A stretch of DNA of 10,652 bases, from positions 1 to 10,652 of the IMG/VR virus record IMGVR_UViG_2671180884_000028; one strand, 5' to 3'. The translations under genes were made by a program, and so were the position numbers. The notes under the pieces are model-generated. The model was given only the letters and a program-made list of their open reading frames with translations. It ran no database searches and was not told where the DNA came from. Shown here piece after piece: positions 1 to 10,652 of the stretch. Source of the stretch: a virus (taxonomy: Duplodnaviria; Heunggongvirae; Uroviricota; Caudoviricetes). Position 1 is the first letter of the stretch. Each line of letters starts with the position of its first letter.

Positions 1-1242
1 ATGGCGAGAAAAACACCCCCATTAACCACAGTACAGATCAAAGCAGCCAGACCAGCAGAAAAGGAATACACCCTACAGGACGGCGGAGGGCTTTTTCTCC
101 TGATCAAACCGTCTGGATCAAAACTCTGGAGATTTTCCTACTACCGACCATCGGACAAAAAAAGAATATTGCTGAGTTTTGGATCGCTTGATGATGTTTC
201 CCTGGCTGATGCCAGAAAACGCCGTAGCGAGTACAGGGCGTTAATTCGTGCCGGAACTGACCCGCAGGACCACGAGAGGCAAAAAAGAGAGGCAGAGGCC
301 CGAAGACAAGGGAACACGTTCGAAAATGTGGCAACAGCATGGTACCAGGTGAAAATCAGCCAGAATCTGGCCCCCAATACGATTAAAGACATCTGGCGAT
401 CGCTGGAAAAATATGTATTCCCGTTCATCGGCAACACGCCAATAGACACCCTGACCGCTCGCAGGTTTGTTGAGGTGCTTACCCCCATCAAGGAACGTGG
501 CAACCTGGAAACGCTCAAGCGAGTTTTACAGCGTGTAAATGAGGTAATGGATTACGCCGCCAATAGTGGGATGATTGATGCCAATCCGGCTATGAATGTG
601 CGTAAGGCGTTCCCCTCCCCTGTAAAAAAACATATGCCAACAATCCGCCCCGAACAGCTGCCGGAGCTTATGCAGGCTTTATCAGTATCGGCAACAGAAC
701 GGCAGACCAGATTACTGATTGAATGGCAGTTACTGACCGTAACCCGTCCCGTTGAAGCATCGTCGGCACGCTGGGAAGAAATCGACATGGAGGCGCAACG
801 CTGGACCATACCCGCCGGACGCATGAAGATGCGCCGCGACCACGTTATCCCGCTTTGTGACCAGGCTATGGCAGTGCTGGAGGCTATGAAACCAATCAGC
901 CACCACCGCGATTATGTTTTCCCGAGTCTGAAAGACCCACGGCAGCCGATGAACAGCCAGACAGCAAACGCAGCATTACGACGCATGGGGTTCGCTGGCG
1001 TGCTGGTGTCTCATGGATTACGCGCCATATTCAGCACAGCAGCGAACGAGGAAGGATTCGAGCCGGACGTAATCGAGGCGGCACTTGCCCACGTCGACAC
1101 CAACGAAGTCAGACGGGCATACAACCGGAGCAACTACATAGAAAAACGCGTGGTGCTTATGCGCTGGTGGGGCGAATTTGTCGAGGCTGCGGCGACGGGC
1201 GTAACCCTCGCCAGTGGTAAAAGGGGTATCCGAGCCGTTTAG
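1..1242 (+). CDS. int: Tyrosine recombinase / integrase, P4-type (N-terminal arm-binding domain plus C-terminal catalytic domain)
   Basis: 413-aa ORF from ATG at 1 to TAG at 1240-1242. N-terminus (LTTVQIKAARPAEKEYTLQDGGGLFLLIKPSGSKLWRFSYY) is typical of the DUF4102 arm-binding domain of P4-like integrases. C-terminal region (HVIPL..., HGLRAIFSTAANEEGF..., RAYNRSNYIEKR) fits the tyrosine recombinase catalytic R..HxxR..Y pattern. Confidence 0.9.
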   Translation: MARKTPPLTTVQIKAARPAEKEYTLQDGGGLFLLIKPSGSKLWRFSYYRPSDKKRILLSFGSLDDVSLADARKRRSEYRALIRAGTDPQDHERQKREAEARRQGNTFENVATAWYQVKISQNLAPNTIKDIWRSLEKYVFPFIGNTPIDTLTARRFVEVLTPIKERGNLETLKRVLQRVNEVMDYAANSGMIDANPAMNVRKAFPSPVKKHMPTIRPEQLPELMQALSVSATERQTRLLIEWQLLTVTRPVEASSARWEEIDMEAQRWTIPAGRMKMRRDHVIPLCDQAMAVLEAMKPISHHRDYVFPSLKDPRQPMNSQTANAALRRMGFAGVLVSHGLRAIFSTAANEEGFEPDVIEAALAHVDTNEVRRAYNRSNYIEKRVVLMRWWGEFVEAAATGVTLASGKRGIRAV

Positions 1243-1340
1243 CTGTACAGAAAACCAGTAAAAACTACGAAAACCATTTAAAACCGTCGTATAATTGCAT
1301 CACATTTAACGACGAGGCCTTGAAAAATGAAACCGTTAAG

Positions 1341-1571
1341 ATGCAAACAAATTTCAGATGCAATTGCGACGGGCTGCAACTGGCCCTGATGGTTCAGCAT
1401 GAATTTTGGTCAACCTACGATCCGGAGGACAGAACGACGGCCCCATCAAAAAAACAGGTAGTAGATTTCCTGGTATCCCGTGGAGCTTCCAGAAATCTGG
1501 CTGTAAGTATTGATAAGGTTGTACGTCCGGCATCCATGAAGACCGGAGGCAGGCCAAAAAAATGGCGGTAA
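1341..1571 (+). CDS. Hypothetical small protein (76 aa from first ATG; ORF is open from TTG at 1320)
   Basis: Open frame ending TAA 1569-1571, preceded by a TATAAT hexamer at 1290-1295 and followed directly by a strong intrinsic terminator. No convincing Shine-Dalgarno; AGA/AGG codons present. An alternative 20-aa ORF from ATG 1327 has a better RBS (GAGG at 1313-1316). Could instead be a non-coding RNA. Confidence 0.3.
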   Translation: MQTNFRCNCDGLQLALMVQHEFWSTYDPEDRTTAPSKKQVVDFLVSRGASRNLAVSIDKVVRPASMKTGGRPKKWR

Positions 1572-1581
1572 CAATCCTGAA

Positions 1582-1605
1582 AGCGGCAGAAATGCCGCTT
1601 TTTTT
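1582..1605 (+). terminator. Rho-independent terminator
   Basis: Hairpin AGCGGCA-gaaa-TGCCGCT (7-bp stem, GAAA tetraloop) followed by a T-run of 7. Confidence 0.7.
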
Positions 1606-1632
1606 ATAAATCCCTTTCAAATCATCAATATA

Positions 1633-1720
1633 AAAAACGGTGTATACCGTTTAAAAACGGTGAGTACTGTTTTTCCCTGCATCCGATGATTTACCGTATT
1701 TCTCACCGGAATACACCGGA
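1633..1720 (+). promoter_or_regulatory. alpA upstream control region with repeated motifs
   Basis: Direct repeats AAAAACGGTG at 1633-1642 and 1653-1662 (20 bp apart), the first inside the inverted repeat AACGGT-gtat-ACCGTT (1636-1651). Direct repeats CACCGGA at 1704-1710 and 1714-1720 (10 bp apart), just upstream of the alpA RBS. Confidence 0.3.
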
Positions 1721-1738
1721 TTAATGAGGTAAATCACG

Positions 1739-1945
1739 ATGGAAGCAATCAAAAAAGTCATCTTTCGCCAGGAAGTAAAAAAACTTATCCATATTAAGGC
1801 AGACAGCACGCTGCAAAGCATGATCAACGCCGGAGAATTCCCGCAGGGTTTTCGTGTCGGTTTGCGCCGTCGCGGATGGTATGAGGAAGACGTAATCGCA
1901 TGGATGAAAGAACGCGAACAAGAAGCGCGCGGAACGACCGCTTAA
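1739..1945 (+). CDS. alpA: AlpA-family transcriptional regulator (prophage CP4-57 regulatory protein-like, HTH)
   Basis: 68 aa; ATG 1739, TAA 1943-1945; RBS TGAGG at 1725-1729. Sequence (FRQEVKKLIHIKADSTLQSMINAGEFPQGFRVGLRRRGWYEEDVIAWM) fits the AlpA/MerR-like HTH pattern (Φ..EV..L...STL...I..G.FP....VG.R..GW.E.DV..WM). Confidence 0.8.
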   Translation: MEAIKKVIFRQEVKKLIHIKADSTLQSMINAGEFPQGFRVGLRRRGWYEEDVIAWMKEREQEARGTTA

Positions 1946-2066
1946 CATATATAGGGCAAATGATGAACATAAAAAAAGCGGCCCCGAAATGGAGCCACCT
2001 TTCTGAACAATTAACCCGCTGCGCCGTATGTGTCAACAATCATAAGCCTGGGCATGATAACCGCGA

Positions 2067-2270
2067 TCAGGCTGGTGGGCAATTATCTTGCTTGTTGGGG
2101 CCGTATTGTGCTGCCATTTTCATCCGTTCAGAACGTGAATATTTTTTTAGAAACTCATCAAGGACAAAAGCGCATGGTGCGAATCTTTCTGATTCATGCT
2201 CGAGCGCCATATTTTCGTGCTCTCTGTTCGTTTTTTGCGATGGTGTATTGGTTGATTCTTTGTTGGTCAT
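2067..2270 (-). CDS. Hypothetical protein (67 aa), possible second gene downstream of the RHH repressor
   Basis: ATG at 2270 (minus strand), 57 bp downstream of the RHH gene stop on the same strand. Hydrophilic, no recognisable domain, weak RBS. Coding status uncertain. Confidence 0.2.
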   Translation of the reverse strand: MTNKESTNTPSQKTNREHENMALEHESERFAPCAFVLDEFLKKYSRSERMKMAAQYGPNKQDNCPPA

Positions 2271-2327
2271 TGTGTGTACCTGTAAAGCAATGCGCCGGAG
2301 TTCCTCACGCCACGGCGCTGATGGTTT

Positions 2328-2519
2328 TTATCCTTTGGGTTCTATGCCGCGCCGCTTTAGTTCAGTGCGCCCCAACTCTTTAAGCCAGTTGGCCAGGCTT
2401 ATGCCGTCGCTCTGTGCTTCTTTATCGAATTGCTCTTTTAGCTCTGGAGAAATTCGCATTCTGAATTGTGGGGATTGCCCGTCCCCTTTAGGGCTTTTAT
2501 CGCGTTTGATTGTTGACAA
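2328..2519 (-). CDS. Arc-like ribbon-helix-helix (RHH) DNA-binding protein, candidate island repressor
   Basis: The C-terminal 50 aa (SPQFRMRISPELKEQFDKEAQSDGISLANWLKELGRTEL) match the P22 Arc N-terminal beta-strand/helix pattern (MPQFNLRWPREVLDLVRKVAEENGRS...). Start is ambiguous: the ORF is open from TTG 2600; TTG 2519 is preceded by AGGTGA; ATG 2459 would remove the beta-strand. Stop TAA is the reverse complement of 2328-2330. Confidence 0.6.
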   Translation of the reverse strand: MSTIKRDKSPKGDGQSPQFRMRISPELKEQFDKEAQSDGISLANWLKELGRTELKRRGIEPKG

Positions 2520-2561
2520 GTGGTCACCTATTGAATTAGCCTTTCTATTGTTAGGTGACCA
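2513..2561. promoter_or_regulatory. Candidate operator/promoter: perfect 10-bp inverted repeat beside a consensus -35 hexamer
   Basis: TTGACA at 2513-2518; TGGTCACCTA at 2521-2530 and its exact reverse complement TAGGTGACCA at 2552-2561 (21-bp spacer). Lies between the RHH gene and the rightward early operon. No good -10 at canonical spacing, so the promoter call is tentative. Confidence 0.4.
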
Positions 2562-2653
2562 CCTTAACACAAGAGCACTTAAAAAAGCAAAGCCCCGCAA
2601 GTGTCATTACCACTCGCAGGGCTTCTAACCAACAACGTAAACTAGGAGCCGTT

Positions 2654-2848
2654 ATGGTTGCTGTAAATCATATACCACACCTTGTACACACACAAACTGC
2701 CTTTGTGTGGCGTTTTCTGGCACTGAGTGCCGGAGAATCTCAAATCATCCACGTAACCGCCTGGACGGAACGCGAAGCGCGTAACCGTTGCCCGTCCGGT
2801 TGTGTTGCTGTATTTGCCGCCCGTATTCGTCAGGAGGTAGGCTTATGA
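2654..2848 (+). CDS. Icd/Ash-like small protein (host cell-division-inhibitor-like family of P4-type elements)
   Basis: 64 aa from ATG 2654 with RBS AGGAG at 2644-2648. Motifs FVWRFLAL...TEREARNR...FAARI resemble the Icd-like family as recalled. The ORF track's longer version starts at GTG 2555 and would overlap the RHH gene. Confidence 0.5.
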   Translation: MVAVNHIPHLVHTQTAFVWRFLALSAGESQIIHVTAWTEREARNRCPSGCVAVFAARIRQEVGL

Positions 2849-3078
2849 GCCAGGAAATCACACTACAACAGGCAGCAGAACGCGCCCACCAAATCGAAGT
2901 TATTTGCGCACTGGCAGAGGATTACCCTGGCATGATGACCGACAGCGAATCAGGGGCAATCATCGGCTTACTTAAACGCCTTAGCGGTGAGGTCTGCGTA
3001 TTCCTGAGCGATGAACAGGAAAGAAGAACGCTTATTTCTAACGAAAAAAAATGCGGAGGGGTACACCATGTGCAATAA
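2845..3078 (+). CDS. Hypothetical protein (77 aa)
   Basis: ATG 2845 overlaps the upstream stop (ATGA at 2845-2848); RBS AGGAGG at 2832-2837. Confidence 0.55.
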   Translation: MSQEITLQQAAERAHQIEVICALAEDYPGMMTDSESGAIIGLLKRLSGEVCVFLSDEQERRTLISNEKKCGGVHHVQ

Positions 3079-3289
3079 CATCCGTCCGGACGCAGCAGCC
3101 GCCGCGCTCACTACGCTGATGCACGCGCTTATCGATATTGAATGCACTGCAGAGCTTGCGCAGGGAGAAGAACAGAAAGACCGGACACAGTTCGCCCTGG
3201 AATGTATCCGATACATCGCAACGCGGTCGCTGAATGACGCTAAAAATATTCTTGTTGCTGATTGTGAAAATGGGGGGGGTTATGCGTGA
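3068..3289 (+). CDS. Hypothetical protein (73 aa)
   Basis: ATG 3068 preceded by GGAGGGG (3055-3061). Overlaps the end of the upstream ORF by 11 nt. An in-frame ATG at 3011 lacks an RBS. Confidence 0.5.
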   Translation: MCNNIRPDAAAAALTTLMHALIDIECTAELAQGEEQKDRTQFALECIRYIATRSLNDAKNILVADCENGGGYA

Positions 3290-3515
3290 TGATCGTTTTA
3301 ATTCCCTGAAACAGGAATTTTCCGGCGTTCCTGATGATGCGGCTGATGCGCTTTCGTCAATGCCAGAACTTATTAGAGCGGCTTTTTTCTTACTTTCCAC
3401 GAGAGAATATAAATCAACGGGGCTTGATGTACTGAATATCGCCGCCGATTATGCGGAATATGTGGCAGAGGCGCGTTACAGAAGAAAATTTCCTGAGGAT
3501 GTAAGCCATGCGTGA
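3282..3515 (+). CDS. Hypothetical protein (77 aa)
   Basis: ATG 3282 preceded by a G-rich RBS (GGGGGGGG at 3272-3279). Overlaps the upstream stop at 3287-3289. Alternative ATG at 3234 has no RBS. Confidence 0.5.
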   Translation: MRDDRFNSLKQEFSGVPDDAADALSSMPELIRAAFFLLSTREYKSTGLDVLNIAADYAEYVAEARYRRKFPEDVSHA

Positions 3516-3741
3516 TATTTACCTCGAAACAATAGACCGCGCATTTCTTGCACTTTCTCACAGTGAAAGCATGATGGAAATATTACGCATATGGCTTGAA
3601 ACACTTGGCGACAATGAACGCGACAAACAAAAATCAAGAATTGCCACGGTATTAATAACGCTTCTTGAGCCTGTAATAATGGAACTGCAAGAAATAGACT
3701 TATTGCACGACAGATATAACGAACAGCACACCGGAGAATAA
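3508..3741 (+). CDS. Hypothetical protein (77 aa)
   Basis: ATG 3508 with GAGGA at 3495-3499; 8-nt overlap with the upstream ORF; stop TAA 3739-3741. Confidence 0.55.
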   Translation: MRDIYLETIDRAFLALSHSESMMEILRIWLETLGDNERDKQKSRIATVLITLLEPVIMELQEIDLLHDRYNEQHTGE

Positions 3742-3746
3742 AAATA

Positions 3747-4046
3747 ATGAAACTTAAATATTCTGGCTTAACTGCCAGTGGCAACACTCACCCTAAATTT
3801 ACGCGCGGTGATATTTACCGCGACCAGTACGGCGGCACGGTAATGATTAAGGGCGTGGCGGGACGGTGCGTAACTTACCGCCGTGAAGGTTACGAATATG
3901 ATTGCGTGATGCCTGTTTATCAGTTCCGGCGTGATTTTTCTCTGGTACAGACCGCGCCGCATAACGTGCCCACCAGCAACGCCAGAGCACGGGCAAACAT
4001 CCAGAAGCTGAAAACCATGATTAACGGATTCAGGGGTAAAAAATGA
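3747..4046 (+). CDS. Hypothetical protein (99 aa)
   Basis: ATG 3747 with GGAGAA at 3733-3738. Its stop overlaps the primase start (ATGA at 4043-4046), indicating translational coupling. Confidence 0.55.
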   Translation: MKLKYSGLTASGNTHPKFTRGDIYRDQYGGTVMIKGVAGRCVTYRREGYEYDCVMPVYQFRRDFSLVQTAPHNVPTSNARARANIQKLKTMINGFRGKK

Positions 4047-5797
4047 AACTGGCACCGAACGTAAAACAGCAGTCACGCGGCATAAAACACAAAGAAACAG
4101 AAGTCATTATTTTTGCGGGTAGTGATGCCTGGTCACACGCGAAACAATGGCAGGAACATGACGCGCGTATGGCCGGAGATAATGAGCCTCCTGTGTGGCT
4201 TGGGGAGCAGCAGTTATCAGAACTGGATAAGCTGCAAATTGTGCCGGAAGGCAGAAAATCCGTGCGCATATTCAGGGCCGGACATCTTGCACCAGTAATG
4301 ATCAAGGCGATTGGTCAAAAGCTGGCGGCGGCTGGTGTACAGGATGCAAATTTTTATCCTGAGGGTATGCACGGCAAGGAGGTGCAGAACTGGCGCGAAT
4401 ACCTGGCCCGTGAACGCCAGAATCTTTCTGATGGTCTGGTCATTGAGCTTCCGGTAAAGCAAAAGGCGCAACTTTCGCAGATGGCGGACAGTGAGCGCGC
4501 GCAGTTGCTTGTCGATCGCTTTGATGGCGTTTGCGTACATCCTGAAAGTGAAATCGTTCACGTATGGCGTGGCGGGGTATGGTGTCCGGTCAGCACAATG
4601 GAACTGAGCCGCGAAATGGTGGCGATCTATTCAGAGCACAGGGCCACTTTCAGCAAGCGCGTAATCAATAACGCCGTGGAAGCATTAAAAGTTATTGCCG
4701 AACCAATGGGCGAGCCGTCCGGCGATTTGTTGCCGTTCGCCAATGGTGCGCTTGACCTGAAAACAGGGGAATTTTCCCCGCACACGCCGGAGAACTGGAT
4801 CACCACGCACAACGGCATTGAATACACGCCACCAGCACCAGGGGAGAATATCCGCGACAACGCGCCAAACTTTCATAAATGGCTTGAGCACGCAGCCGGA
4901 AAAGACCCGCGCAAGATGATGCGTATATGTGCCGCGCTGTACATGATTATGGCGAACCGGTACGACTGGCAGATGTTTATTGAGGCCACCGGAGACGGCG
5001 GGAGCGGTAAAAGTACATTCACACACATAGCCAGCCTTCTGGCAGGGAAACAGAACACGGTAAGCGCTGAGATGACATCGCTTGATGATGCTGGTGGACG
5101 TGCGCAGGTTGTCGGGAGTCGTCTTATCGTCCTGGCAGACCAGCCGAAATATACAGGCGAAGGAACGGGCATCAAGAAAATCACGGGCGGCGACCCCGTG
5201 GAAATTAACCCGAAATATGAAAAGCGTTTCACGGCGGTAATCAGGGCGGTGGTGCTGGCGACCAATAACAATCCGATGATATTCACCGAACGGGCCGGAG
5301 GTGTGGCACGTCGTCGCGTGATTTTCCGTTTCGACAATATTGTTAGTGAGGCCGAAAAAGACAGGGAGCTACCGGAAAAAATTGCGGCTGAAATCCCCGT
5401 CATTATCCGCCGCTTGCTGGCGAACTTTACCGACCCTGAAAAGGCACGGGCTTTACTCATTGAGCAGCGTGACGGTGATGAAGCTCTGGCAATAAAGCAA
5501 CAGACGGATCCGGTTATTGAGTTTTGCCAGTTCCTGAATTTTCTGGAGGAAGCGCGCGGCCTGATGATGGGGGGCGGTGGCGATTCAGTGAAGTACACGA
5601 CCAGGAACAGCCTTTACCGCGTCTATCTGGCGTTTATGGCATACGCAGGCAGGAGCAAACCGCTAAACGTGGCTGAGTTCAGCAAGGCCATGAAGCCAGC
5701 GGCGAAAGTTTACGGGCATGAATATATTACGCGAAAAGTTAAGGGAGTAACGCAGACCAACGCAATTACAACAGACGATTGCGACGCGTTTTTATAA
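4043..5797 (+). CDS. Replication initiator: primase / SF3 helicase (P4 alpha-like / D5-family Pri-Rep protein)
   Basis: 584 aa. Walker A motif ATGDGGSGKST and Walker B-like RLIVLADQP in the C-terminal half. Size and layout match satellite primase-helicases. An iteron-rich origin lies immediately downstream. Confidence 0.85.
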   Translation: MKLAPNVKQQSRGIKHKETEVIIFAGSDAWSHAKQWQEHDARMAGDNEPPVWLGEQQLSELDKLQIVPEGRKSVRIFRAGHLAPVMIKAIGQKLAAAGVQDANFYPEGMHGKEVQNWREYLARERQNLSDGLVIELPVKQKAQLSQMADSERAQLLVDRFDGVCVHPESEIVHVWRGGVWCPVSTMELSREMVAIYSEHRATFSKRVINNAVEALKVIAEPMGEPSGDLLPFANGALDLKTGEFSPHTPENWITTHNGIEYTPPAPGENIRDNAPNFHKWLEHAAGKDPRKMMRICAALYMIMANRYDWQMFIEATGDGGSGKSTFTHIASLLAGKQNTVSAEMTSLDDAGGRAQVVGSRLIVLADQPKYTGEGTGIKKITGGDPVEINPKYEKRFTAVIRAVVLATNNNPMIFTERAGGVARRRVIFRFDNIVSEAEKDRELPEKIAAEIPVIIRRLLANFTDPEKARALLIEQRDGDEALAIKQQTDPVIEFCQFLNFLEEARGLMMGGGGDSVKYTTRNSLYRVYLAFMAYAGRSKPLNVAEFSKAMKPAAKVYGHEYITRKVKGVTQTNAITTDDCDAFL

Positions 5798-5810
5798 TTT
5801 TTTGTAAAAG

Positions 5811-6040
5811 CCCTCTACCCCATCTACCTGAATGAAATAAATACATATTATTCAACATGATAAGTGGGTAGAGGGCCAGGTAGAAGGCTAATAAAAGCTC
5901 TCTACCTCTTCTACCTGATTTTATCAGTTTCAGGTAGCAGGGTAGACGGTAGGTAGAGGAGCCCAAAAAGCTATCTACCCGCTGAAAGCCGCGCCATTAC
6001 TGACATGATGAGCATTCGGGTAGATGGGTAGAGGGGGGGA
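5811..6040. repeat. Iteron array / candidate origin of replication
   Basis: About 12 copies of a core TCTACC / GGTAGA motif arranged in clustered pairs in both orientations. Examples: CCCTCTACCCCATCTACCTGA (5811-5831), GGGTAGAGGGCCAGGTAGAAGG (5865-5886), CTCTCTACCTCTTCTACCTGA (5899-5919), AGGTAGCAGGGTAGACGGTAGGTAGAGGA (5932-5960), GGGTAGATGGGTAGAGGGG (6018-6036). An AT-rich stretch sits at 5831-5862. Confidence 0.6.
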
Positions 6041-6080
6041 GGCACAACTAAAAACTTTTTAAACGAGGGGGTGAAAATAA

Positions 6081-6395
6081 ATGCGCATACATCAAAATCA
6101 CTTAACAAACATGCCAGCCGAAAACATGAATCAGGGGCGACAAATGACCAAAATTCGCAGAGACAGAACAGAGCCAAAATATAAAGCGTTAGACATGACT
6201 GAGCATACCTTAAAGGTGGCAATCAGAACGATAGACCGCCACGCGGGGGAAGGATACGCGAAAGCACATCCCGACATGATAAGCGCATTCATGACCACGA
6301 CGGCGGCAAATTTTGCCACGCTGACAGAGCGGGAGATTGCGGAAGCTGAACAGGTGACAACCATCAACGTTAAAAACGTAGAGGTGGAATCATGA
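6081..6395 (+). CDS. Hypothetical protein (104 aa)
   Basis: ATG 6081 with RBS GAGGGGG (6065-6071). Stop overlaps the ssb start (ATGA at 6392-6395). Confidence 0.55.
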   Translation: MRIHQNHLTNMPAENMNQGRQMTKIRRDRTEPKYKALDMTEHTLKVAIRTIDRHAGEGYAKAHPDMISAFMTTTAANFATLTEREIAEAEQVTTINVKNVEVES

Positions 6396-6809
6396 CAGCA
6401 CAGATAGCGGCTTACGGGCGGCTGGTGGCTGGTGGCTGACCCACAGTTAAAGACCACCAGCAAGGGCACACAAATGACGATGGCGAGTATGGCGGTTCCC
6501 CTGACATGCAGCCAGGCTGATGACGGAACGGCGACGATGTGGTTATCCGTCCTGGCGTTTGGCAGACAGGCCGACGCACTGGCAAAACACCGCAAAGGCG
6601 AGCTGGTGAGCGTGGCGGGTAACATGCAGGTAAGCCAGTGGACAGGCCAGAACGGCGAAACGCGGCAGGGCTGGCAGGTTATCGCAGACAGTGTAATCAG
6701 TGCCCGTGCTGCCCGTCCTGGCGGGAGCAGACGTACAACCACAGGCACACAGGGTAATCAGCCACCAGCGGGAGGCGATGACCCTTACGGTGACGGTATT
6801 CCGTTCTGA
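6392..6809 (+). pseudogene. ssb: Single-stranded DNA-binding protein (SSB-like), disrupted by a frameshift
   Basis: ATG 6392 opens MTAQIAAYGRLVAGG and then hits TGA at 6437-6439. The rest of the protein continues in the +1 frame (ADPQLKTTSKGTQMTMASMAVPL...GWQVIADSVISA...DDPYGDGIPF) with the SSB acidic DIPF tail. A tandem 7-bp duplication GCTGGTG/GCTGGTG at 6421-6434 accounts for the shift; removing one copy restores ...GRLVADPQLK... in frame. Confidence 0.65.
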
Positions 6810-6819
6810 GGGGGTGACG

Positions 6820-7092
6820 ATGGTACATGACCGCATAGCGGAGGAACTCGAGGCAAAAGGCTTTTACCGGAGGGCGGCGGCGCGATGGGGTGAAGTTATG
6901 CAGCTGGTGGAGACAGACAAGGAACGGCATCAGGTTACGATGCGACGGCTGGAATGTTCCAGGAAGGCACAGAAGCCACCGGAGCCGCCGGATAACTTCG
7001 GAGACCTGAGAAAGGCAGTCGATCGCACTTATGCTGAAATGGGTATAGATGGTGTAAGCGATGAAATATGGCGTAATTACCCAGACAGCTAA
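6820..7092 (+). CDS. PerC-family transcriptional regulator-like protein (90 aa)
   Basis: ATG 6820 with RBS GAGGGGG (6808-6814). N-terminus MVHDRIAEELEAKGFYRRAAARWGEVMQL matches the conserved PerC/Pch N-terminal pattern as recalled. Confidence 0.55.
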   Translation: MVHDRIAEELEAKGFYRRAAARWGEVMQLVETDKERHQVTMRRLECSRKAQKPPEPPDNFGDLRKAVDRTYAEMGIDGVSDEIWRNYPDS

Positions 7093-7097
7093 TCAAC

Positions 7098-7120
7098 AGC
7101 CGGAGAAATCCGGCTTTTTT
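7098..7120 (+). terminator. Rho-independent terminator
   Basis: Hairpin AGCCGGA-gaaa-TCCGGCT followed by TTTTTT, directly after the PerC-like gene. An almost identical copy occurs at 9372-9395. Confidence 0.6.
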
Positions 7121-7131
7121 GTACCCAAAAA

Positions 7132-7169
7132 AAGCCCGATAAGTACAGGAGGCATCTTATCGGGCTTTT
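7132..7169. terminator. Second hairpin, possible bidirectional terminator
   Basis: AAGCCCGATAAG-(12-nt loop)-CTTATCGGGCTT with TTTT on the plus side and an A7 run (T7 on minus) on the other side. Confidence 0.4.
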
Positions 7170-7246
7170 GCATATGAGGTTTTTTTGGTGCACTGACACA
7201 CATGATCGGGATAATCATTTCATAATTTGCAACACAACTCAACATC

Positions 7247-7297
7247 ATTGCACAAAATGCAATCCTGATTATAATCAGAGCTGGATGTTCATCCAGT
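7247..7297 (+). promoter_or_regulatory. Promoter of the head module with three palindromic elements (candidate operator or activator sites)
   Basis: -35 TTGCAC (7248-7253), 16-bp spacer, consensus -10 TATAAT (7270-7275). The -10 lies inside the perfect 14-bp palindrome CTGATTATAATCAG (7265-7278). Flanked by ATTGCA-caaaa-TGCAAT (7247-7263) and CTGGATG-tt-CATCCAG (7281-7296). Confidence 0.5.
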
Positions 7298-7331
7298 TAT
7301 GATTTTTTAAGTCAAAGAGGAATTTCTTACT

Positions 7332-7538
7332 ATGGCTGAAGAGAAAAAAGGCGGTGTTTCGGTGTACATAAGCCCCGACATCGTGAAGGCGCTCAAGGAA
7401 CGCCACCAGCAGAACGTAAAAGCAGGCATTGCGGCAGGACTTGATCCGCTGGCGATGGTTGAGCCGTCAACAGGCTGGCAGGTGCGCGCCTACTTACGTG
7501 CGGCGCTGGGTATGAATCAGGTTCACGGGGGTGAATAA
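7332..7538 (+). CDS. Hypothetical head-module protein (68 aa), translationally coupled to the major capsid gene
   Basis: ATG 7332 with RBS AAGAGGAA (7315-7322). Stop overlaps the capsid gene start (TAATG at 7536-7540). Position suggests a scaffold or assembly factor, but there is no sequence evidence for this. Confidence 0.5.
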   Translation: MAEEKKGGVSVYISPDIVKALKERHQQNVKAGIAAGLDPLAMVEPSTGWQVRAYLRAALGMNQVHGGE

Positions 7539-8593
7539 TGGCAGGCAAAGCAATGGCACTTAACACTAACCAGCTTTTTACATACCTGAATCGCGGGGAT
7601 ATTGCGGAATTTAAATTCAGTCCGCTGTTTACCACGCTGTTTTTCCCGAACGTGGCGACATTCAGCACCCAAAACATCATGCTGGATACCCTGGACATTG
7701 AAGAAGTCACCATGTCGGCGTTTTGTTCGCCTATGGTTGGCAGTCAGGTACAGCGCGATAAAGGGTATGAAACCAGCACAATCAAACCTGGCTACATGAA
7801 GCCAAAGCACGAAATCGATCCAACAAAAACCATCATGCGCATGGCTGGAGAAGATCCGGCACAGCTTAACGACCCTACCTACCGCCGTATGCGCCTGATT
7901 ACTGGCAACATGCGCCGCCAGATAAACGCCATTAAAGCGCGCGTGGAATGGCTGGCGGTGAATGCGATAACGACCGGAAAAAACATCATTGAGGGCGAAG
8001 GCATAGAACGCTATGAAATCGACTGGAAAATACCGGAAAACTGCATCATAGAGCAGGCCAAGGGTAAAAAATGGTCCGAGCATGATAAAGATATTTACGA
8101 TCCAATCTATGACATCGAACTATACGCAGATCAGGCAGGTTGCCCCGCCAACGTCATGATTATGGGCGCTGAGGTATGGCGCACGTTACGCAGCTTTAAA
8201 AAATTCCGCGAACTGTACGATCTTTCCCGTGGTTCAGAATCCGCCGCAGAACTGGCCTGTAAAAACCTGGGTGAAGTAGTGAGCTTTAAAGGCTATCTGG
8301 GCGATATTGCCCTTATCGTCTATTCCGGCAAATACACTGACAGCGACGGTACCGAAAAATATTTCCTTGAGCCTGATTTGCTGGTCCTGGGTAACACCAA
8401 CAATAAAGGGCTGGTGGCCTATGGTGCGATTATGGATCAGGAAGCGGTAAGAACGGGCGCAACGCAAAACATGTTCTACCCGAAAAACTGGATTGAAGAC
8501 GGCGATCCGGCGATTGAGTACGTTCAGACGCACAGCGCACCGCAGCCGGTACCGGCAGATATTCGCAAATTTGTTACCGTCAAAATTGGTTAA
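7538..8593 (+). CDS. Major capsid protein, lambda gpE family (HK97 fold)
   Basis: 351 aa. Collinear with lambda gpE as recalled: EFKFSPLFTTLFF vs KFKFDPLFLRLFF; PGYMKPKHEIDP vs PGYVKPKHEVNP; GEDPAQLNDPTYRRMRLITGNMR vs DEDPQNLADPAYRRRRIIMQNMR; VSFKGYLGDIALIVYSGKY vs VSYKGMYGDVAIVVYSGQY; FYPKNWIEDGDPA vs RYPKNWVTTGDPA; C-terminus KFVTVKIG vs EFVSVQLA. Confidence 0.9.
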   Translation: MAGKAMALNTNQLFTYLNRGDIAEFKFSPLFTTLFFPNVATFSTQNIMLDTLDIEEVTMSAFCSPMVGSQVQRDKGYETSTIKPGYMKPKHEIDPTKTIMRMAGEDPAQLNDPTYRRMRLITGNMRRQINAIKARVEWLAVNAITTGKNIIEGEGIERYEIDWKIPENCIIEQAKGKKWSEHDKDIYDPIYDIELYADQAGCPANVMIMGAEVWRTLRSFKKFRELYDLSRGSESAAELACKNLGEVVSFKGYLGDIALIVYSGKYTDSDGTEKYFLEPDLLVLGNTNNKGLVAYGAIMDQEAVRTGATQNMFYPKNWIEDGDPAIEYVQTHSAPQPVPADIRKFVTVKIG

Positions 8594-8604
8594 CGGGGGA
8601 TTCT

Positions 8605-8940
8605 ATGGACACTCCATACATTGAGTTATTTGCAGGCAGTCAGCAGGTATCCACGACGCTGGTACATTTTGCCGCTGATGCTGGCGTCATTCAGGAATTT
8701 ACCCCGCTGATGCTGGCGGACAATGGCGAGTTTAAGCCGTGGGATGGTCAGGAATCTGGCAAGGCTGTTTATCTGACCTCGTACCCTGTGGACACGTCAA
8801 AGCAAAAATCAGCACAGTGTTACAAGACGGGGATATTTAATATCGCCGCCGTAAACTGGCCTGAGAGCGTCGACACTGACGCGAAAAAATGCGCCGCCTT
8901 TGCGGGTTCTGGCGTATCCGTTCAGCCGCTGGCGCGATAA
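8605..8940 (+). CDS. Head decoration / stabilisation protein, lambda gpD-like
   Basis: 111 aa; ATG 8605 with RBS GGGGGA. Matches lambda gpD as recalled: TPLMLADNGEFKPWDG vs TPLMLDTSSRKLVAWDG; CYKTGIFNIAAVNWPE vs FYKSGTFRYEDVLWPE; DAKKCAAFAGSGVS vs DETKKRTAFAGTAIS. Confidence 0.8.
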   Translation: MDTPYIELFAGSQQVSTTLVHFAADAGVIQEFTPLMLADNGEFKPWDGQESGKAVYLTSYPVDTSKQKSAQCYKTGIFNIAAVNWPESVDTDAKKCAAFAGSGVSVQPLAR

Positions 8941-8952
8941 GCAGGGGGAACG

Positions 8953-9366
8953 ATGGCAACGAATGAAAGCATCATGACGCTACCGCTGGCGAGTAAATTT
9001 AAAGCCGAAGCGCGGGCAATGGCTGACAGAGGTTTATCAACCTACGAGGCCGTATATCAACTCAACAAACTGGAAGAGCAGGACAAGCCGCGCGCTGATG
9101 CGATTATGGCGCTTCATGAACATAACGACTATCAGCCGCTGTTACGTGCAATGGCAAACGTGCCATGTATTAGCGTCGATAATGCTCGTGAAATCCTGAA
9201 CATGACCATAGAGCAGGAGCGCCCAAAGGTTGCGCCGGAGCTTACCGCAGCCTTTGAAAACTTTATGGACATGCACAGCCCGAAAGCCGTATCACCCGGC
9301 ATGGCATACGATGGCAGAAACCAGGGCGATGACGGCGACATCGATCGCATACTGAAAACCATCTGA
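8953..9366 (+). CDS. Hypothetical protein (137 aa) at the end of the head module
   Basis: ATG 8953 with RBS AGGGGGAA (8943-8950). Followed by a terminator hairpin. No recognisable homology. Confidence 0.55.
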   Translation: MATNESIMTLPLASKFKAEARAMADRGLSTYEAVYQLNKLEEQDKPRADAIMALHEHNDYQPLLRAMANVPCISVDNAREILNMTIEQERPKVAPELTAAFENFMDMHSPKAVSPGMAYDGRNQGDDGDIDRILKTI

Positions 9367-9371
9367 GACAA

Positions 9372-9395
9372 GGCCGGAGAAATCCGGCTTTTTTT
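9372..9395 (+). terminator. Rho-independent terminator (second copy of the hairpin at 7098-7120)
   Basis: GGCCGGA-gaaa-TCCGGC followed by T7. Sits immediately upstream of the cosQ-like sequence. Confidence 0.6.
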
Positions 9396-9572
9396 ACGGG
9401 TCCTTTCCGGCATATGGACCCGTTACGGGGCGGCGACCTCGCGCGTTTTCGCTATTTATGAGCCTTTTCAGGGGGGTGGTGGTGGTTTTGTTGTTTGCTC
9501 TATCTTTATGAATGAAAAGGGAAAGATGCAAACAATACACCAACCTGAAGCAGTAATTAAGTTGGTGTATTA
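9396..9572 (+). other. cos site A (cosQ-like, cosN, divergent cosB), forward orientation, upstream of terS
   Basis: ACGGGTCCTTTCCGG...CCGTTACG followed by the exact lambda cohesive-end 12-mer GGGCGGCGACCT (9428-9439), then CGCGCGTTTTCGCTATTTATGAG, closely matching the lambda genome left end as recalled. The distal part lacks lambda R-site motifs and instead has inverted repeats AATACACCAAC / GTTGGTGTATT (9530-9540 / 9561-9571) and TGTTTGC / GCAAACA (9494-9500 / 9517-9523). Confidence 0.75.
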
Positions 9573-10115
9573 ATGAAATCGCACCTGATGAACAAAAAAA
9601 ACATGGCGAAAAGCTGCCGTGTAAGTGCGACAGCGTTCGACAAGTGGGGAGTGACTCCCGTTGAACGTAAAGGCCGTGAGGCGTTTTATGATGTTGCCAG
9701 CGTGATAGACAATAGGGTTAACAATGCAATTAGCCAGCTTACAAACGACAAAGGCGATATTGATGATGATGAACTCTTACGAGTCAGGATCAGATTACTG
9801 ACAGCACAGGCGGAGGCGCAGGAACTTAAAAACGAGCGCGATCGCGGTGACGTGATTGATACTGAGTTTTGCCTGTACGCGCTTTCAAAGCTGGCGAGTC
9901 AGATTTCATCAATCATGGACAGCCTCCCGCTTACTATGCAAAGGAGCTTCCCACAGATTACCCCCGCCATGCTGGACAGGCTTAAAAGGGAAGTGGTTAA
10001 AGCCTGTAATGCCAGTGCCAGAGTTGCCGACAACCTCCCACAGATACTGGCTGATTACTTGAAAGAAACAACCGGAAACGTACCGGAAAAGTTGCTACAG
10101 AAGAAAGGCAAGTAA
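9573..10115 (+). CDS. Terminase small subunit, lambda Nu1-like (TerS)
   Basis: 180 aa. Middle and C-terminal regions are collinear with lambda Nu1 as recalled: LTAQAEAQELKNERDRGDVIDTEFCLYALSKLASQISSIMDSLPLTMQRSFPQ vs LTRAQADAQELKNARDSAEVVETAFCTFVLSRIAGEIASILDGLPLSVQRRFPE. The N-terminal wHTH region is much more divergent. Alternative start ATG 9588 (MNKKNMAK) aligns with Nu1 MEVNKKQLA. No strong RBS at either start. Confidence 0.85.
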   Translation: MKSHLMNKKNMAKSCRVSATAFDKWGVTPVERKGREAFYDVASVIDNRVNNAISQLTNDKGDIDDDELLRVRIRLLTAQAEAQELKNERDRGDVIDTEFCLYALSKLASQISSIMDSLPLTMQRSFPQITPAMLDRLKREVVKACNASARVADNLPQILADYLKETTGNVPEKLLQKKGK

Positions 10116-10340
10116 CAGAAGCGCAATTATTGAACAAAAATGAGAAACGACATGAAAGCGTCATAAATCGCCATTTCAGATGATTACCGTGTCGTTTCTT
10201 TTTATTGTGTATCTATTTAAAAACAAATAGTTATGTTCGAGAAGTACCGACATGATTTTTCCAGAAAAATTTTCATAAACAGATAAAAACCGCGAGGTCG
10301 CCGCCCCGTAACGGGCCATAATTCCAGGAAGGACCCGACG
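10116..10340 (-). other. cos site B (lambda-like cosQ-cosN-cosB) in inverted orientation, downstream of terS
   Basis: On the minus strand: CGGGTCCTTCCTGGAATTATGGCCCGTTACG, then GGGCGGCGACCT (plus 10295-10306), then CGCGGTTTTTATCTGTTTATGAAAATTTTTCTGG, then R-site-like AAGAAACGACACGG and ATGTCGTTTCTCA (perfect 10-bp inverted repeat at plus 10152-10161 / 10190-10199). This is collinear with lambda cosN-I2-R3-R2 as recalled. A 25-bp core is a perfect inverted repeat of cos A (9419-9443 vs 10291-10315). Confidence 0.7.
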
Positions 10341-10370
10341 ACACCAGACTATCAGAACGATGGGGGCACA

Positions 10371-10652
10371 ATGACAGAAGCCGAACTACTGCGATTAATC
10401 CGTCGCGTTGCCGGAATCAGCCAGCAGGCTGACGAACAGGCCACGCAGCCGGACAGCGTGACAGCCGAAAATTATGTGCGTGTTGTTGCGGAGGTGATGC
10501 GCCGTGATGGTATCCAGCTTAATGATGCGGATATGCGCGACATACGGATCCGCGTTCTTGAAATGCTGGCCTACCGTCGCCGCGTGCAGACGTACAGGGA
10601 AAAAGCAAAAATAACGTACCAGTGGAAGAAGCCGGAGCGATTACGGCGGTAA
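10371..10652 (+). CDS. Hypothetical protein (93 aa) just beyond cos B
   Basis: ATG 10371 with G-rich RBS (GGGGG at 10362-10366); stop TAA 10650-10652 at the window end. No recognisable homology. Confidence 0.45.
   Translation: MTEAELLRLIRRVAGISQQADEQATQPDSVTAENYVRVVAEVMRRDGIQLNDADMRDIRIRVLEMLAYRRRVQTYREKAKITYQWKKPERLRR

Follow-up and report, generated by a model that had tools for sequence, protein, structure and literature searches.

The window considered here, a stretch of 10,652 nucleotides occupying positions 1 to 10,652 of IMG/VR virus record IMGVR_UViG_2671180884_000028, is, by its open reading frames (ORFs) and domains, a phage satellite, namely a phage-inducible chromosomal island (PICI) of the EcCICFT073 type. 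The sole leftward-transcribed stretch of this island lies between alpA and the early operon. Within this switch region are found a gene for a ribbon-helix-helix (RHH) protein related to the Arc repressor, two putative operators that begin at its start codon, predicted promoters on both strands, and a predicted SymR-like cis-antisense RNA that overlaps the beginning of the first early gene. The region was compared with 79 loci (L002-L080) that encode relatives of the RHH protein, taken from one genome per species in species other than E. coli, to which places in E. coli and Proteus were added (islands L081-L085 among them).

The RHH gene occupies 2328-2519 on the minus strand and encodes 63 amino acids (aa) from a TTG start codon at 2519, whereas the mechanically listed ORF spans 2328-2600. 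A start at ATG 2459 or TTG 2600 is rejected because the N-terminus MSTIKRDK is conserved: the sequence MSTIKRDKSPKG is kept in 54 protein clusters (63-64 aa) from many Enterobacterales, including Providencia, Proteus, Xenorhabdus, Erwinia, Dickeya, Pectobacterium, Yersinia, Citrobacter and others, and a relative annotated by PGAP begins at the homologous M-S-T. A previous reading of the DNA, made from the letters and their translations (hereinafter, the sequence-only reading), had recognized an Arc-type N-terminal strand in this protein and described it as an Arc-type repressor; the strand, SPQFRMRISPEL, is present, and the assignment is now backed by homology to Arc. The protein matches phrog_228 (“Arc-like repressor”, 5e-7), and a profile of the family searched against PDB retrieves P22 Arc with an E-value of 0.0027 (residues 11-57 aligned with residues 2-48 of Arc) and Mnt with an E-value of 0.37, the family pattern KGxGQSPQFxxRIxPEL being placed against KGMSKMPQFNLRWPREV of Arc. 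The PHROG and PDB-profile matches are weak but consistent. The AlphaFold2 model of the monomer (pLDDT 82) consists of an extended N-terminal segment followed by helices 25-37 and 42-56, that is, the strand-helix-helix arrangement over about 45 residues that is typical of the RHH fold, although the strand is not scored as such because a monomer was modelled. In a Foldseek search of PDB, the top seven matches are all Arc (probability 0.98-1.0, target TM 0.70-0.88), followed by NikA, AmrZ, CopG and ParG. The variable residues of the motif X-F-X-[MIV]-R align with Gln9 and Asn11 of Arc, and the arginine aligned with Arg13 of Arc is invariant across the family.

Homologues of this protein are labelled “HicB family antitoxin” at NCBI. 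The Pfam HicB model matches residues 44-74 of the long RHH ORF with its last part and with a score (19.5 bits) below the cut-off of 21, and the label is a carry-over from the RHH part of that model. With its 63 aa, the protein lacks the N-terminal (RNase H-like) domain of HicB, and no HicA-like neighbour was found, so that its identification as a HicB antitoxin was rejected; the only feature in common with these antitoxins is the C-terminal RHH DNA-binding motif.

Immediately upstream of the RHH start codon lies a perfect inverted repeat, which the sequence-only reading had given as 10 bp and taken for an operator. The repeat has in fact 11 bp, with the arms GTGGTCACCTA (2520-2530) and TAGGTGACCAC (2552-2562) separated by 21 nt. 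For perfect repeats of 11 bp or more whose arms are no further than 40 nt apart, the expectation is 0.12 per shuffled window, and they occur in 0.26% of the shuffles of the 201-nt segment 2460-2660. The two arms are the putative operators O1 (proximal, 2520-2530, with the core GTGGTCAC and a CTA flank) and O2 (distal, 2552-2562), which are identified as repeat arms, by their position in about 80 loci and by the covariation of their cores with the protein; exact GTGRYCACCTA sites in the window are these two only, and no further RHH operator was found there. O1 abuts the RHH start codon, includes the ribosome-binding sequence of the RHH gene (AGGTGA, 2524-2529, minus strand) and is located within the spacer of the predicted early-operon promoter P_R, whereas O2 covers approximately +3 to +13 of the same promoter and overlaps the -10 element and start of P_L, the predicted promoter of the RHH gene. 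This layout is fixed in about 80 loci: the proximal site ends at -1 relative to the RHH start and the inverted distal site begins at about -43, each site being an 8-bp quasi-palindrome GTnnnnAC with the conserved inner flank CCTA.

The covariation carries most of the argument for an operator. Across about 80 loci, the 8-bp core varies along with the two beta-strand residues that are aligned to the base-contacting Gln9 and Asn11 of Arc, forming about eight classes. The residue pair Q,R goes with the core GTG(AC/GT)CAC in 9/9 cases, Q,K with GTGGCCAC in 3/3, T,Q with GTACGTAC in 47/57, P,H with GTGT(A/G)CAC in 4/5, M,N with GTCTATAC in 2/3 and M,P with GCATATAC in 2/2; I,S is accompanied by GTCCATAC and P,Q by GTAATTAC, each in 1/1. 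Loci L002, L014 and L015 have near-identical antisense-RNA sequences and differing RHH classes, and in these loci the operator tracks the protein rather than the flank. Likewise, in E. coli NCCP 13963 (L001) the RHH N-terminus and the repeats have been replaced together between flanks that are about 97% identical. Such swaps represent the mosaic pattern of an immunity region. That beta-strand side chains read operator bases, as in Arc and MetJ, is thus indicated by comparison, and the comparative evidence that the inverted repeat would be the operator of the RHH repressor is strong.

The locus of E. coli NCCP 13963 (L001, 9379-10389) contains two complete modules of RHH gene and antisense RNA in tandem, one of them 98% identical to that of the window and the other a different specificity allele; a truncated gene between the two suggests recombination between islands. 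In islands L087 (4640-4760) and L091 (2960-3050), the same position is occupied by another RHH type (59 or 101 aa, MATGxKNAKS...) with its own, differing inverted repeats (for example, GGTGTATTTCACC / GGTGAAATACACT in L087), and in the Nissle/CFT073-like island a different, 101-aa gene of the “YlcI/YnfO family” is found in the same place and orientation, with the same antisense RNA adjoining. Repressor and operators seem to be swapped together, as one unit. In transcripts that extend past the terminator of the antisense RNA, the operator arms (2520-2562) would also form an 11-bp RNA stem that hides the RHH ribosome-binding sequence, which may be incidental.

Three promoter-like motifs recur in 33-45 non-redundant loci, two of them around these operators and the third belonging to the antisense RNA described below. 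The TTGACA that the sequence-only reading had assigned to the RHH gene is present at 2513-2518 but on the plus strand, so that it cannot be the -35 element of a minus-strand gene; it belongs to the opposite promoter and is likely the -35 of P_R, the predicted promoter of the early operon. With an 18-nt spacer, it is followed by the predicted -10 element TAGCCT (2537-2542, plus strand), whose TAnnnT pattern is found at this position in 33 non-redundant loci, and the predicted start is at about 2549-2550. The TTGACA overlaps codons 1-3 of the RHH gene, start codon included (TTG TCA ACA on the other strand), and GTTGACAT, the reverse complement of these codons, is at least 80% conserved across loci, wobble positions included. 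The predicted promoter of the RHH gene, P_L, has a conserved extended -10 element, TGTTAAGGT (2561-2569, minus strand), with a predicted start at about 2554; the pattern TG-n-TA..GT, which occupies positions -50 to -42 relative to the RHH start, is shared by 33 non-redundant loci and overlaps O2. Cross-locus conservation thus points to promoter function for both P_R and P_L. As the two would face each other with starts about 5 bp apart, the polymerase footprints and both operators overlap, and transcription of the RHH gene against the early operon, as proposed in the sequence-only reading, is supported.

The second component of the region is a predicted RNA. In the sequence-only reading, a hairpin in this region was a leader element of the early operon with no U-tract. 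The hairpin exists, at 2590-2624, and the lack of a U-tract is true of the plus strand only: on the minus strand, a stem of 15 pairs (8 G-C and two G.U) is followed by GCTTTTTTAA, whereas the plus-strand form has two mismatches. The structure appears to close, as stem-loop and terminator, the 3′ end of a SymR-like antisense RNA of about 77-79 nt (2581-2659) that is conserved on the minus strand and had been overlooked, as judged from the terminator, the fold, covariation and a covariance model. The predicted RNA folds into two hairpins, SL1 (2659-2627), with the anti-Shine-Dalgarno sequence CUCCU in its loop, and SL2 (2625-2589), the terminator hairpin, followed by a U-run (2586-2581).

That the hairpin is instead a plus-strand stabilizer or attenuator of the early mRNA, with no antisense RNA involved, accords with its location in the predicted 5′ untranslated region of the early operon and with the fact that the plus-strand RNA folds too (-20.6 kcal/mol, z = -2.3). 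The corresponding values for the minus-strand RNA (2659-2581) are -35.4 kcal/mol and z = -6.0, and when the hairpin was folded on both strands in 76 non-redundant loci, the form on the RHH strand was the stabler one in 75. Given further that the plus-strand mismatches are G.U pairs on the minus strand, that only the latter has the U-tract, and that a conserved minus-strand promoter upstream and homology to the mapped SymR RNA both point in the same direction, a plus-strand leader element is very improbable.

A segment of 75-83 nt, from the 5′ A of the predicted RNA to the tail past the hairpin, adopts the same two hairpins in nearly every one of 45 homologues folded singly; in SL1, the 5′ AGCCAU pairs with a conserved GUGGUU and the loop holds the anti-Shine-Dalgarno CUCC. 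When the 45 sequences were aligned by sequence only (MAFFT), 77.7% of the cells were paired, compared with 35-50% in slid-partner controls; 22 of the 27 pairs change on both sides, and the observed covariation score was reached by none of 500 shuffles. One G.U pair is kept in 43 of the 45 sequences; read on the opposite strand, it would become an A.C mismatch. From 44 of these sequences, excluding that of the window, a covariance model was built. It has a single match in the window, at 2583-2659 on the minus strand, over its full length (23.6 bits); it also finds the annotated symR of E. coli K-12 at its exact position (4836-4918, 27.6 bits) and matches EcCIEDL933, the Nissle island and L087. 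In the opposite direction, the Rfam SymR model (RF01809) matches the relatives in L018 (30.2 bits) and L068 (28.1 bits), both over the full length and neither reaching the gathering threshold of 61 bits.

The promoter of this RNA, P_as, is predicted to lie inside the first early gene, where the -10 element TATGAT (2667-2672, minus strand) falls within codons 5-7; a possible -35 element noted by inspection, TTGTGT (2690-2695, minus strand, 17-nt spacer), is weak and unconserved across loci. The TA...T of the -10 is invariant in 45/45 aligned loci, with a nearly invariant G two bases before it, and 7 nt after the hexamer comes AGCCAT, the complement of the ATG of the first early gene and the next three bases. 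The layout upstream of K-12 symR is alike (TAGAAT, 7 nt, AGUCAU). The invariant -10 is embedded in first genes that are unrelated to each other: Icd-like, SymE-like, and at least three families without a match. Because the antisense promoter and the 5′ end fall in the first 6-7 codons, the boundary of the cassette is inside the first gene.

SymR acts alongside LexA and Lon to repress the synthesis of SymE in K-12 (Kawano, Aravind and Storz 2007, PMC1891008). The likeness extends to the placement (judged here by position and homology), an RNA of about 77 nt whose antisense start lies a few nucleotides within the target ORF and which spans the start codon and ribosome-binding site of that ORF, as well as to the promoter layout, the two-hairpin structure, the similarity in both directions of search, and a SymE-like first gene in some loci of the cassette. 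The differences are that the window target is Icd-like and not SymE, that the best Rfam scores of the cassette are about 30 bits against the gathering threshold of 61, with none for the window, and that the repressor is LexA in K-12; no LexA box was found in the switch region, and LexA control was rejected. RHH and primase-helicase genes were already drawn beside some symE homologues in the same study, where protein regulators were read as replacements of the RNA (PMC1891008), whereas in the present cassette the RHH protein and the antisense RNA are both present. The minus-strand RNA is, by computational comparison, a distant homologue of E. coli SymR, and its ends (2659 and approximately 2581) are predicted by homology. 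An immunity RNA of the C4 / P4 CI type upstream of icd was also considered and rejected: the whole window has no match to Rfam C4 at E ≤ 1.

The first early gene (2654-2848, plus strand) encodes a 64-aa Icd-like protein (NCBIfam NF033153 phage_ICD_like, 5e-18), with the ribosome-binding sequence AGGAG at 2644-2648; relatives are named Icd-like by PGAP as well. The RNA of the window is fully complementary to this ribosome-binding sequence and to the ATG (2654). The gene overlaps the next ORF by ATGA (2845-2848), and the ORFs that follow overlap by 4-11 nt. In some other loci the first gene is SymE-like (NCBIfam SymE, 4e-15), and in others it belongs to one of the families without a match. The unrelated first genes (window 2654-2680; L002-L085) share a similar N-terminal peptide, M-A-x-x-x-S/T-T or ..H-T/I...

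Taken together, these findings suggest, with a probability that we put at about 70%, that the segment 2328-2695 is a portable two-layer repression cassette guarding the early (replication/packaging) operon of EcCICFT073-like PICIs, and a role of the region as an immunity switch is plausible. In the first layer, the RHH protein, presumably as one dimer per site, would bind O1, within the P_R spacer, and O2, over the P_R start and the -10 and start of P_L; given these positions, it would silence the early operon and keep its own promoter in check. In the second layer, a constitutive antisense RNA of about 78 nt, produced from the promoter inside the first Icd-like codons (start about 2659, end about 2581) and presenting its anti-Shine-Dalgarno sequence in a loop, would block translation of the first gene (Icd-like here, SymE-like elsewhere) on leaky early transcripts, and the resulting duplex may in addition become a target for cleavage. 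Expression of the downstream ORFs should fall as well, given their translational coupling. If anything at this locus resembles a toxin-antitoxin system, it is the pair of antisense RNA and Icd-like gene. One could further speculate that AlpA bypasses the switch, with transcription from the alpA side running through the RHH gene into the early operon.

Several observations weigh against this interpretation. AlpA is required and sufficient for induction, and its overexpression triggers induction (PMC6092414), so that the repressor cannot be the only control. The spacing of 33-35 bp from one operator core to the other does not correspond to an integral number of helical turns. A consensus promoter scan flags none of P_R, P_L and P_as (the -10 of P_R and the -35 of P_as each score 3/6 against the consensus), and the case for the three promoters therefore comes from conservation. 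In some lineages (Pectobacterium, Brenneria) the hairpin lacks a U-tract, in which case the antisense RNA may read through into the RHH gene and P_L is perhaps not the sole source of repressor. The window RNA scores no more than 23.6 bits with our own model and has no match to Rfam SymR even in a 181-nt search. Finally, homologues of the int, DUF4222 or primase of this island are found within 3 kb in only 32 of 81 sequences (80 loci and the window), and the cassette also occurs outside recognizable satellites, for instance in L057, with no replication gene nearby, so the label “island immunity” may be too narrow. In this locus (Citrobacter portucalensis, 2800-4000), the cassette of RHH gene and SymR-like RNA has a SymE-like first gene and lies beside tRNA-Sec and an Hcp gene, and in L008 (Yersinia aldovae) the same cassette is found near a P2-type capsid gene, outside a recognizable PICI.

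A partial alternative, not exclusive of the two-layer reading, is that the cassette mainly sets the level of replication after induction, throttling the primase/replicase operon in the way that CopG and RNAII act on repB of pMV158. The controlled operon does include DUF4222 and the primase, both cases combine an RHH repressor with a short antisense RNA that covers a translation start, CopG is among the fold matches of the window protein, and overexpression of AlpA leads to “uncontrolled replication” of EcCICFT073 (PMC6092414). However, copG shares a transcript with repB, which is also the direct target of RNAII, whereas here the repressor is divergent and the target of the RNA is a small leader gene (Icd-like or SymE-like), not the primase; PICIs have been reported to lack a plasmid state (PMC6092414), and in L057 no replication gene lies near the cassette. 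As the main function of the cassette, regulation of the replication level is accordingly considered unlikely.

Among known regulatory regions, several resemble the two-layer cassette in part. The immI region of phage P22 comprises the RHH repressors Mnt and Arc and the sar antisense RNA that controls ant, with operators that overlap opposed promoters. As in P22, an Arc-type RHH gene is transcribed against the operon under its putative control, the putative operators overlap opposed promoters, a predicted small cis-antisense RNA covers the translation start of a gene in this operon, and the closest solved relatives of the window protein are Arc, then Mnt. The window cassette differs in having one repressor gene instead of two and two separated 11-bp arms instead of one 21-bp site, and in its RNA, which is SymR-like and not sar and is directed at an Icd-like gene that heads a satellite early operon. 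In the immI region of P1 and P7, the translation start of an Icd-type first gene is targeted by the small repressor RNA c4, and the downstream genes depend on translation of this gene. The Icd-type first gene, its small-RNA-targeted start and the downstream dependence are shared with the window; c4, in contrast, is a same-strand RNA encoded upstream, whose short complementary segments let it act in trans, and the window has neither a match to Rfam C4 nor an ant gene. In SaPIs and other Gram-positive PICIs, whose master repressor is Stl (Rpr), the repressor gene also lies beside int, is transcribed away from the xis/replication operon and belongs to a region that varies between islands. However, Stl proteins are large helix-turn-helix repressors that are inactivated by helper-phage proteins and are not accompanied by an antisense RNA, whereas the known inducer in Gram-negative islands is AlpA.

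In the paper on Gram-negative PICIs, the global repressor is described as “unclear” (PMC6092414), the papers on capsid-forming PICIs (cf-PICIs) do not mention a repressor, and a 2025 preprint notes that the gene downstream of alpA is variable and does not assign a function to it. In the library of papers that we searched, there was none linking SymR to satellites or PICIs, and none on a PICI repressor or antisense RNA of this kind. Thus, the types of components (Arc-like repressors and SymR-type antisense RNAs) are known, and their portable combination at the head of Gram-negative PICI/cf-PICI early operons appears to be undescribed. The findings bear on the question that the field calls unclear and give the region testable content, namely, an Arc-like repressor with predictable operator specificity, opposed promoters and a SymR-type RNA. 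They also tie the type I system SymE/SymR to a mobile regulatory cassette of phage satellites and offer a natural set of orthogonal repressor/operator pairs. A more far-reaching proposal, which we advance tentatively and hold to be slightly short of an even chance, is that the cassette is the missing master repressor of Gram-negative PICIs and cf-PICIs, with swappable immunity classes, both layers keeping the islands silent until overridden by helper-induced AlpA, that its gene has been hidden by a shadow-ORF annotation, and that symER of K-12 is a domesticated remnant in which LexA has replaced the RHH protein.

Downstream of the RHH gene lies the 67-aa minus-strand ORF (ORF67, 2067-2270) described in the sequence-only reading, at the reported distance of 57 nt. 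That reading had combined the two into a pair with toxin-antitoxin-like geometry, a claim that comparison does not sustain: ORF67 is not conserved with the RHH gene and matches no toxin family. It is represented by 15 protein clusters, in E. coli only, with 52-98% identity, the N-terminal 45 residues being conserved (MTNKESTNTPS...EHESERFAPCAF) and the tails variable. None of the 79 loci of other species (L002-L080) contains it, nor do islands L081-L085 of E. coli and Proteus; it is also missing from many E. coli islands, in which its place is empty or taken by Bro-N or pRha genes. No significant Pfam or NCBIfam match and no credible toxin or defence family was found for ORF67; PADLOC returned a weak, sub-threshold match to Cas8g (E 6e-4), which is taken as chance, and the protein matches phrog_21027 (2e-12), the function of which is uncharacterized.

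Were the RHH protein an antitoxin and autorepressor, ORF67 its toxin, and the repeat the operator of that pair only, as in type II toxin-antitoxin systems, then the same strand, the order of the RHH gene and the small protein, the constant 57-nt distance, and the NCBI naming of the RHH homologues would all be accounted for. Yet neither a cognate toxin that co-occurs with the repressor nor a partner from a known toxin family is seen. ORF67 follows RHH genes of three unrelated types (63 aa in the window, 57 aa in L001, 59 aa in L087), a toxin-binding extension and the HicB N-terminal domain are both absent from the 63-aa repressor, and the operators overlap the promoter of the early operon. A type II pair is therefore quite improbable, and assignments to HicB/HicA or to other toxin-antitoxin or defence systems were rejected after the Pfam, NCBIfam and PADLOC searches. 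ORF67 is very probably a real gene; it rides on the leftward transcript as an accessory and is not a partner that defines the cassette. The 57-nt spacer between the RHH gene and ORF67 folds no better than its shuffles (z = -0.2), and no structured element was found in it.

A plus-strand ORF of 242 aa (1900-2628) runs antisense to both ORF67 and the RHH gene. In EDL933, its 247-aa counterpart is the sole coding sequence annotated in this place by RefSeq (L090, 3414-4157), and on the opposite strand the same DNA encodes an RHH protein 100% identical to that of the window. If this ORF were the real gene, the minus-strand ORFs would be its shadows, a reading in line with the RefSeq annotation; since codon third positions coincide on both strands, the phase of substitutions cannot separate the two frames. 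However, the RHH frame is intact in 84/84 loci, whereas only 42/84 keep an antisense frame open over this gene; the RHH protein is related to Arc in sequence and predicted fold, whereas the 242-aa product has no Pfam match; and PGAP calls the minus-strand genes in other genomes. A genuine plus-strand gene is thus hardly credible. Because it has no Pfam match and its frame is open in half of the loci, the 242-aa ORF is probably a shadow ORF and an annotation error, one that recurs and conceals two real small genes.

The remainder of the window conforms to the EcCICFT073 type. According to the ORF and domain list, the plus strand encodes an integrase at 1-1242 and an AlpA-like regulator at 1739-1945, then a series of small ORFs that overlap each other, DUF4222 (3747-4046), a P4-type primase (4043-5797) and a capsid-E-like protein (7538-8593), as well as a decoration protein and a Nu1-type small terminase. 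The order int, alpA, primase/rep, capsid E-like, decoration, terS and the association with a tRNA or other att site are those of a PICI, and the content agrees with that published for EcCICFT073 (capsid and decoration genes, alpA and pri-rep). Over 91% of its length, the window is 93% identical to the island that adjoins tRNA-Pro in E. coli Nissle 1917 and ATCC 25922.

The order int, alpA, RHH gene on the opposite strand, small ORFs, DUF4222 and primase is kept in the E. coli and Proteus islands, with SSB, PerC and capsid genes additionally present in some of these loci. The 951-bp switch region was matched, at least partly, in 1,201 of 5,426 complete E. coli genomes, and the module is present, unannotated or misannotated, in the prototype islands EcCIEDL933 and Nissle/CFT073-like. 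A search of a phage database with the switch region gave just three weak partial matches, with uninformative or no annotation.

Three further elements were noted at other places. The Rfam int-alpA RNA motif (RF02996) was found in a Morganella island (L016, 6090-6158, minus strand, 49.7 bits); the segment between int and alpA of the window has no match to it. At 9534-9571 of the window, another perfect inverted repeat of 11 bp (AATACACCAAC / GTTGGTGTATT) ends 2 nt before the start codon of the small terminase gene (9573); it may serve as an operator or as a site related to packaging. Two adjoining G+C-rich hairpins flanked by runs of A and T at 7097-7171, which include a perfect inverted repeat of 14 bp (7130-7170), resemble a bidirectional terminator placed between the replication and capsid modules.

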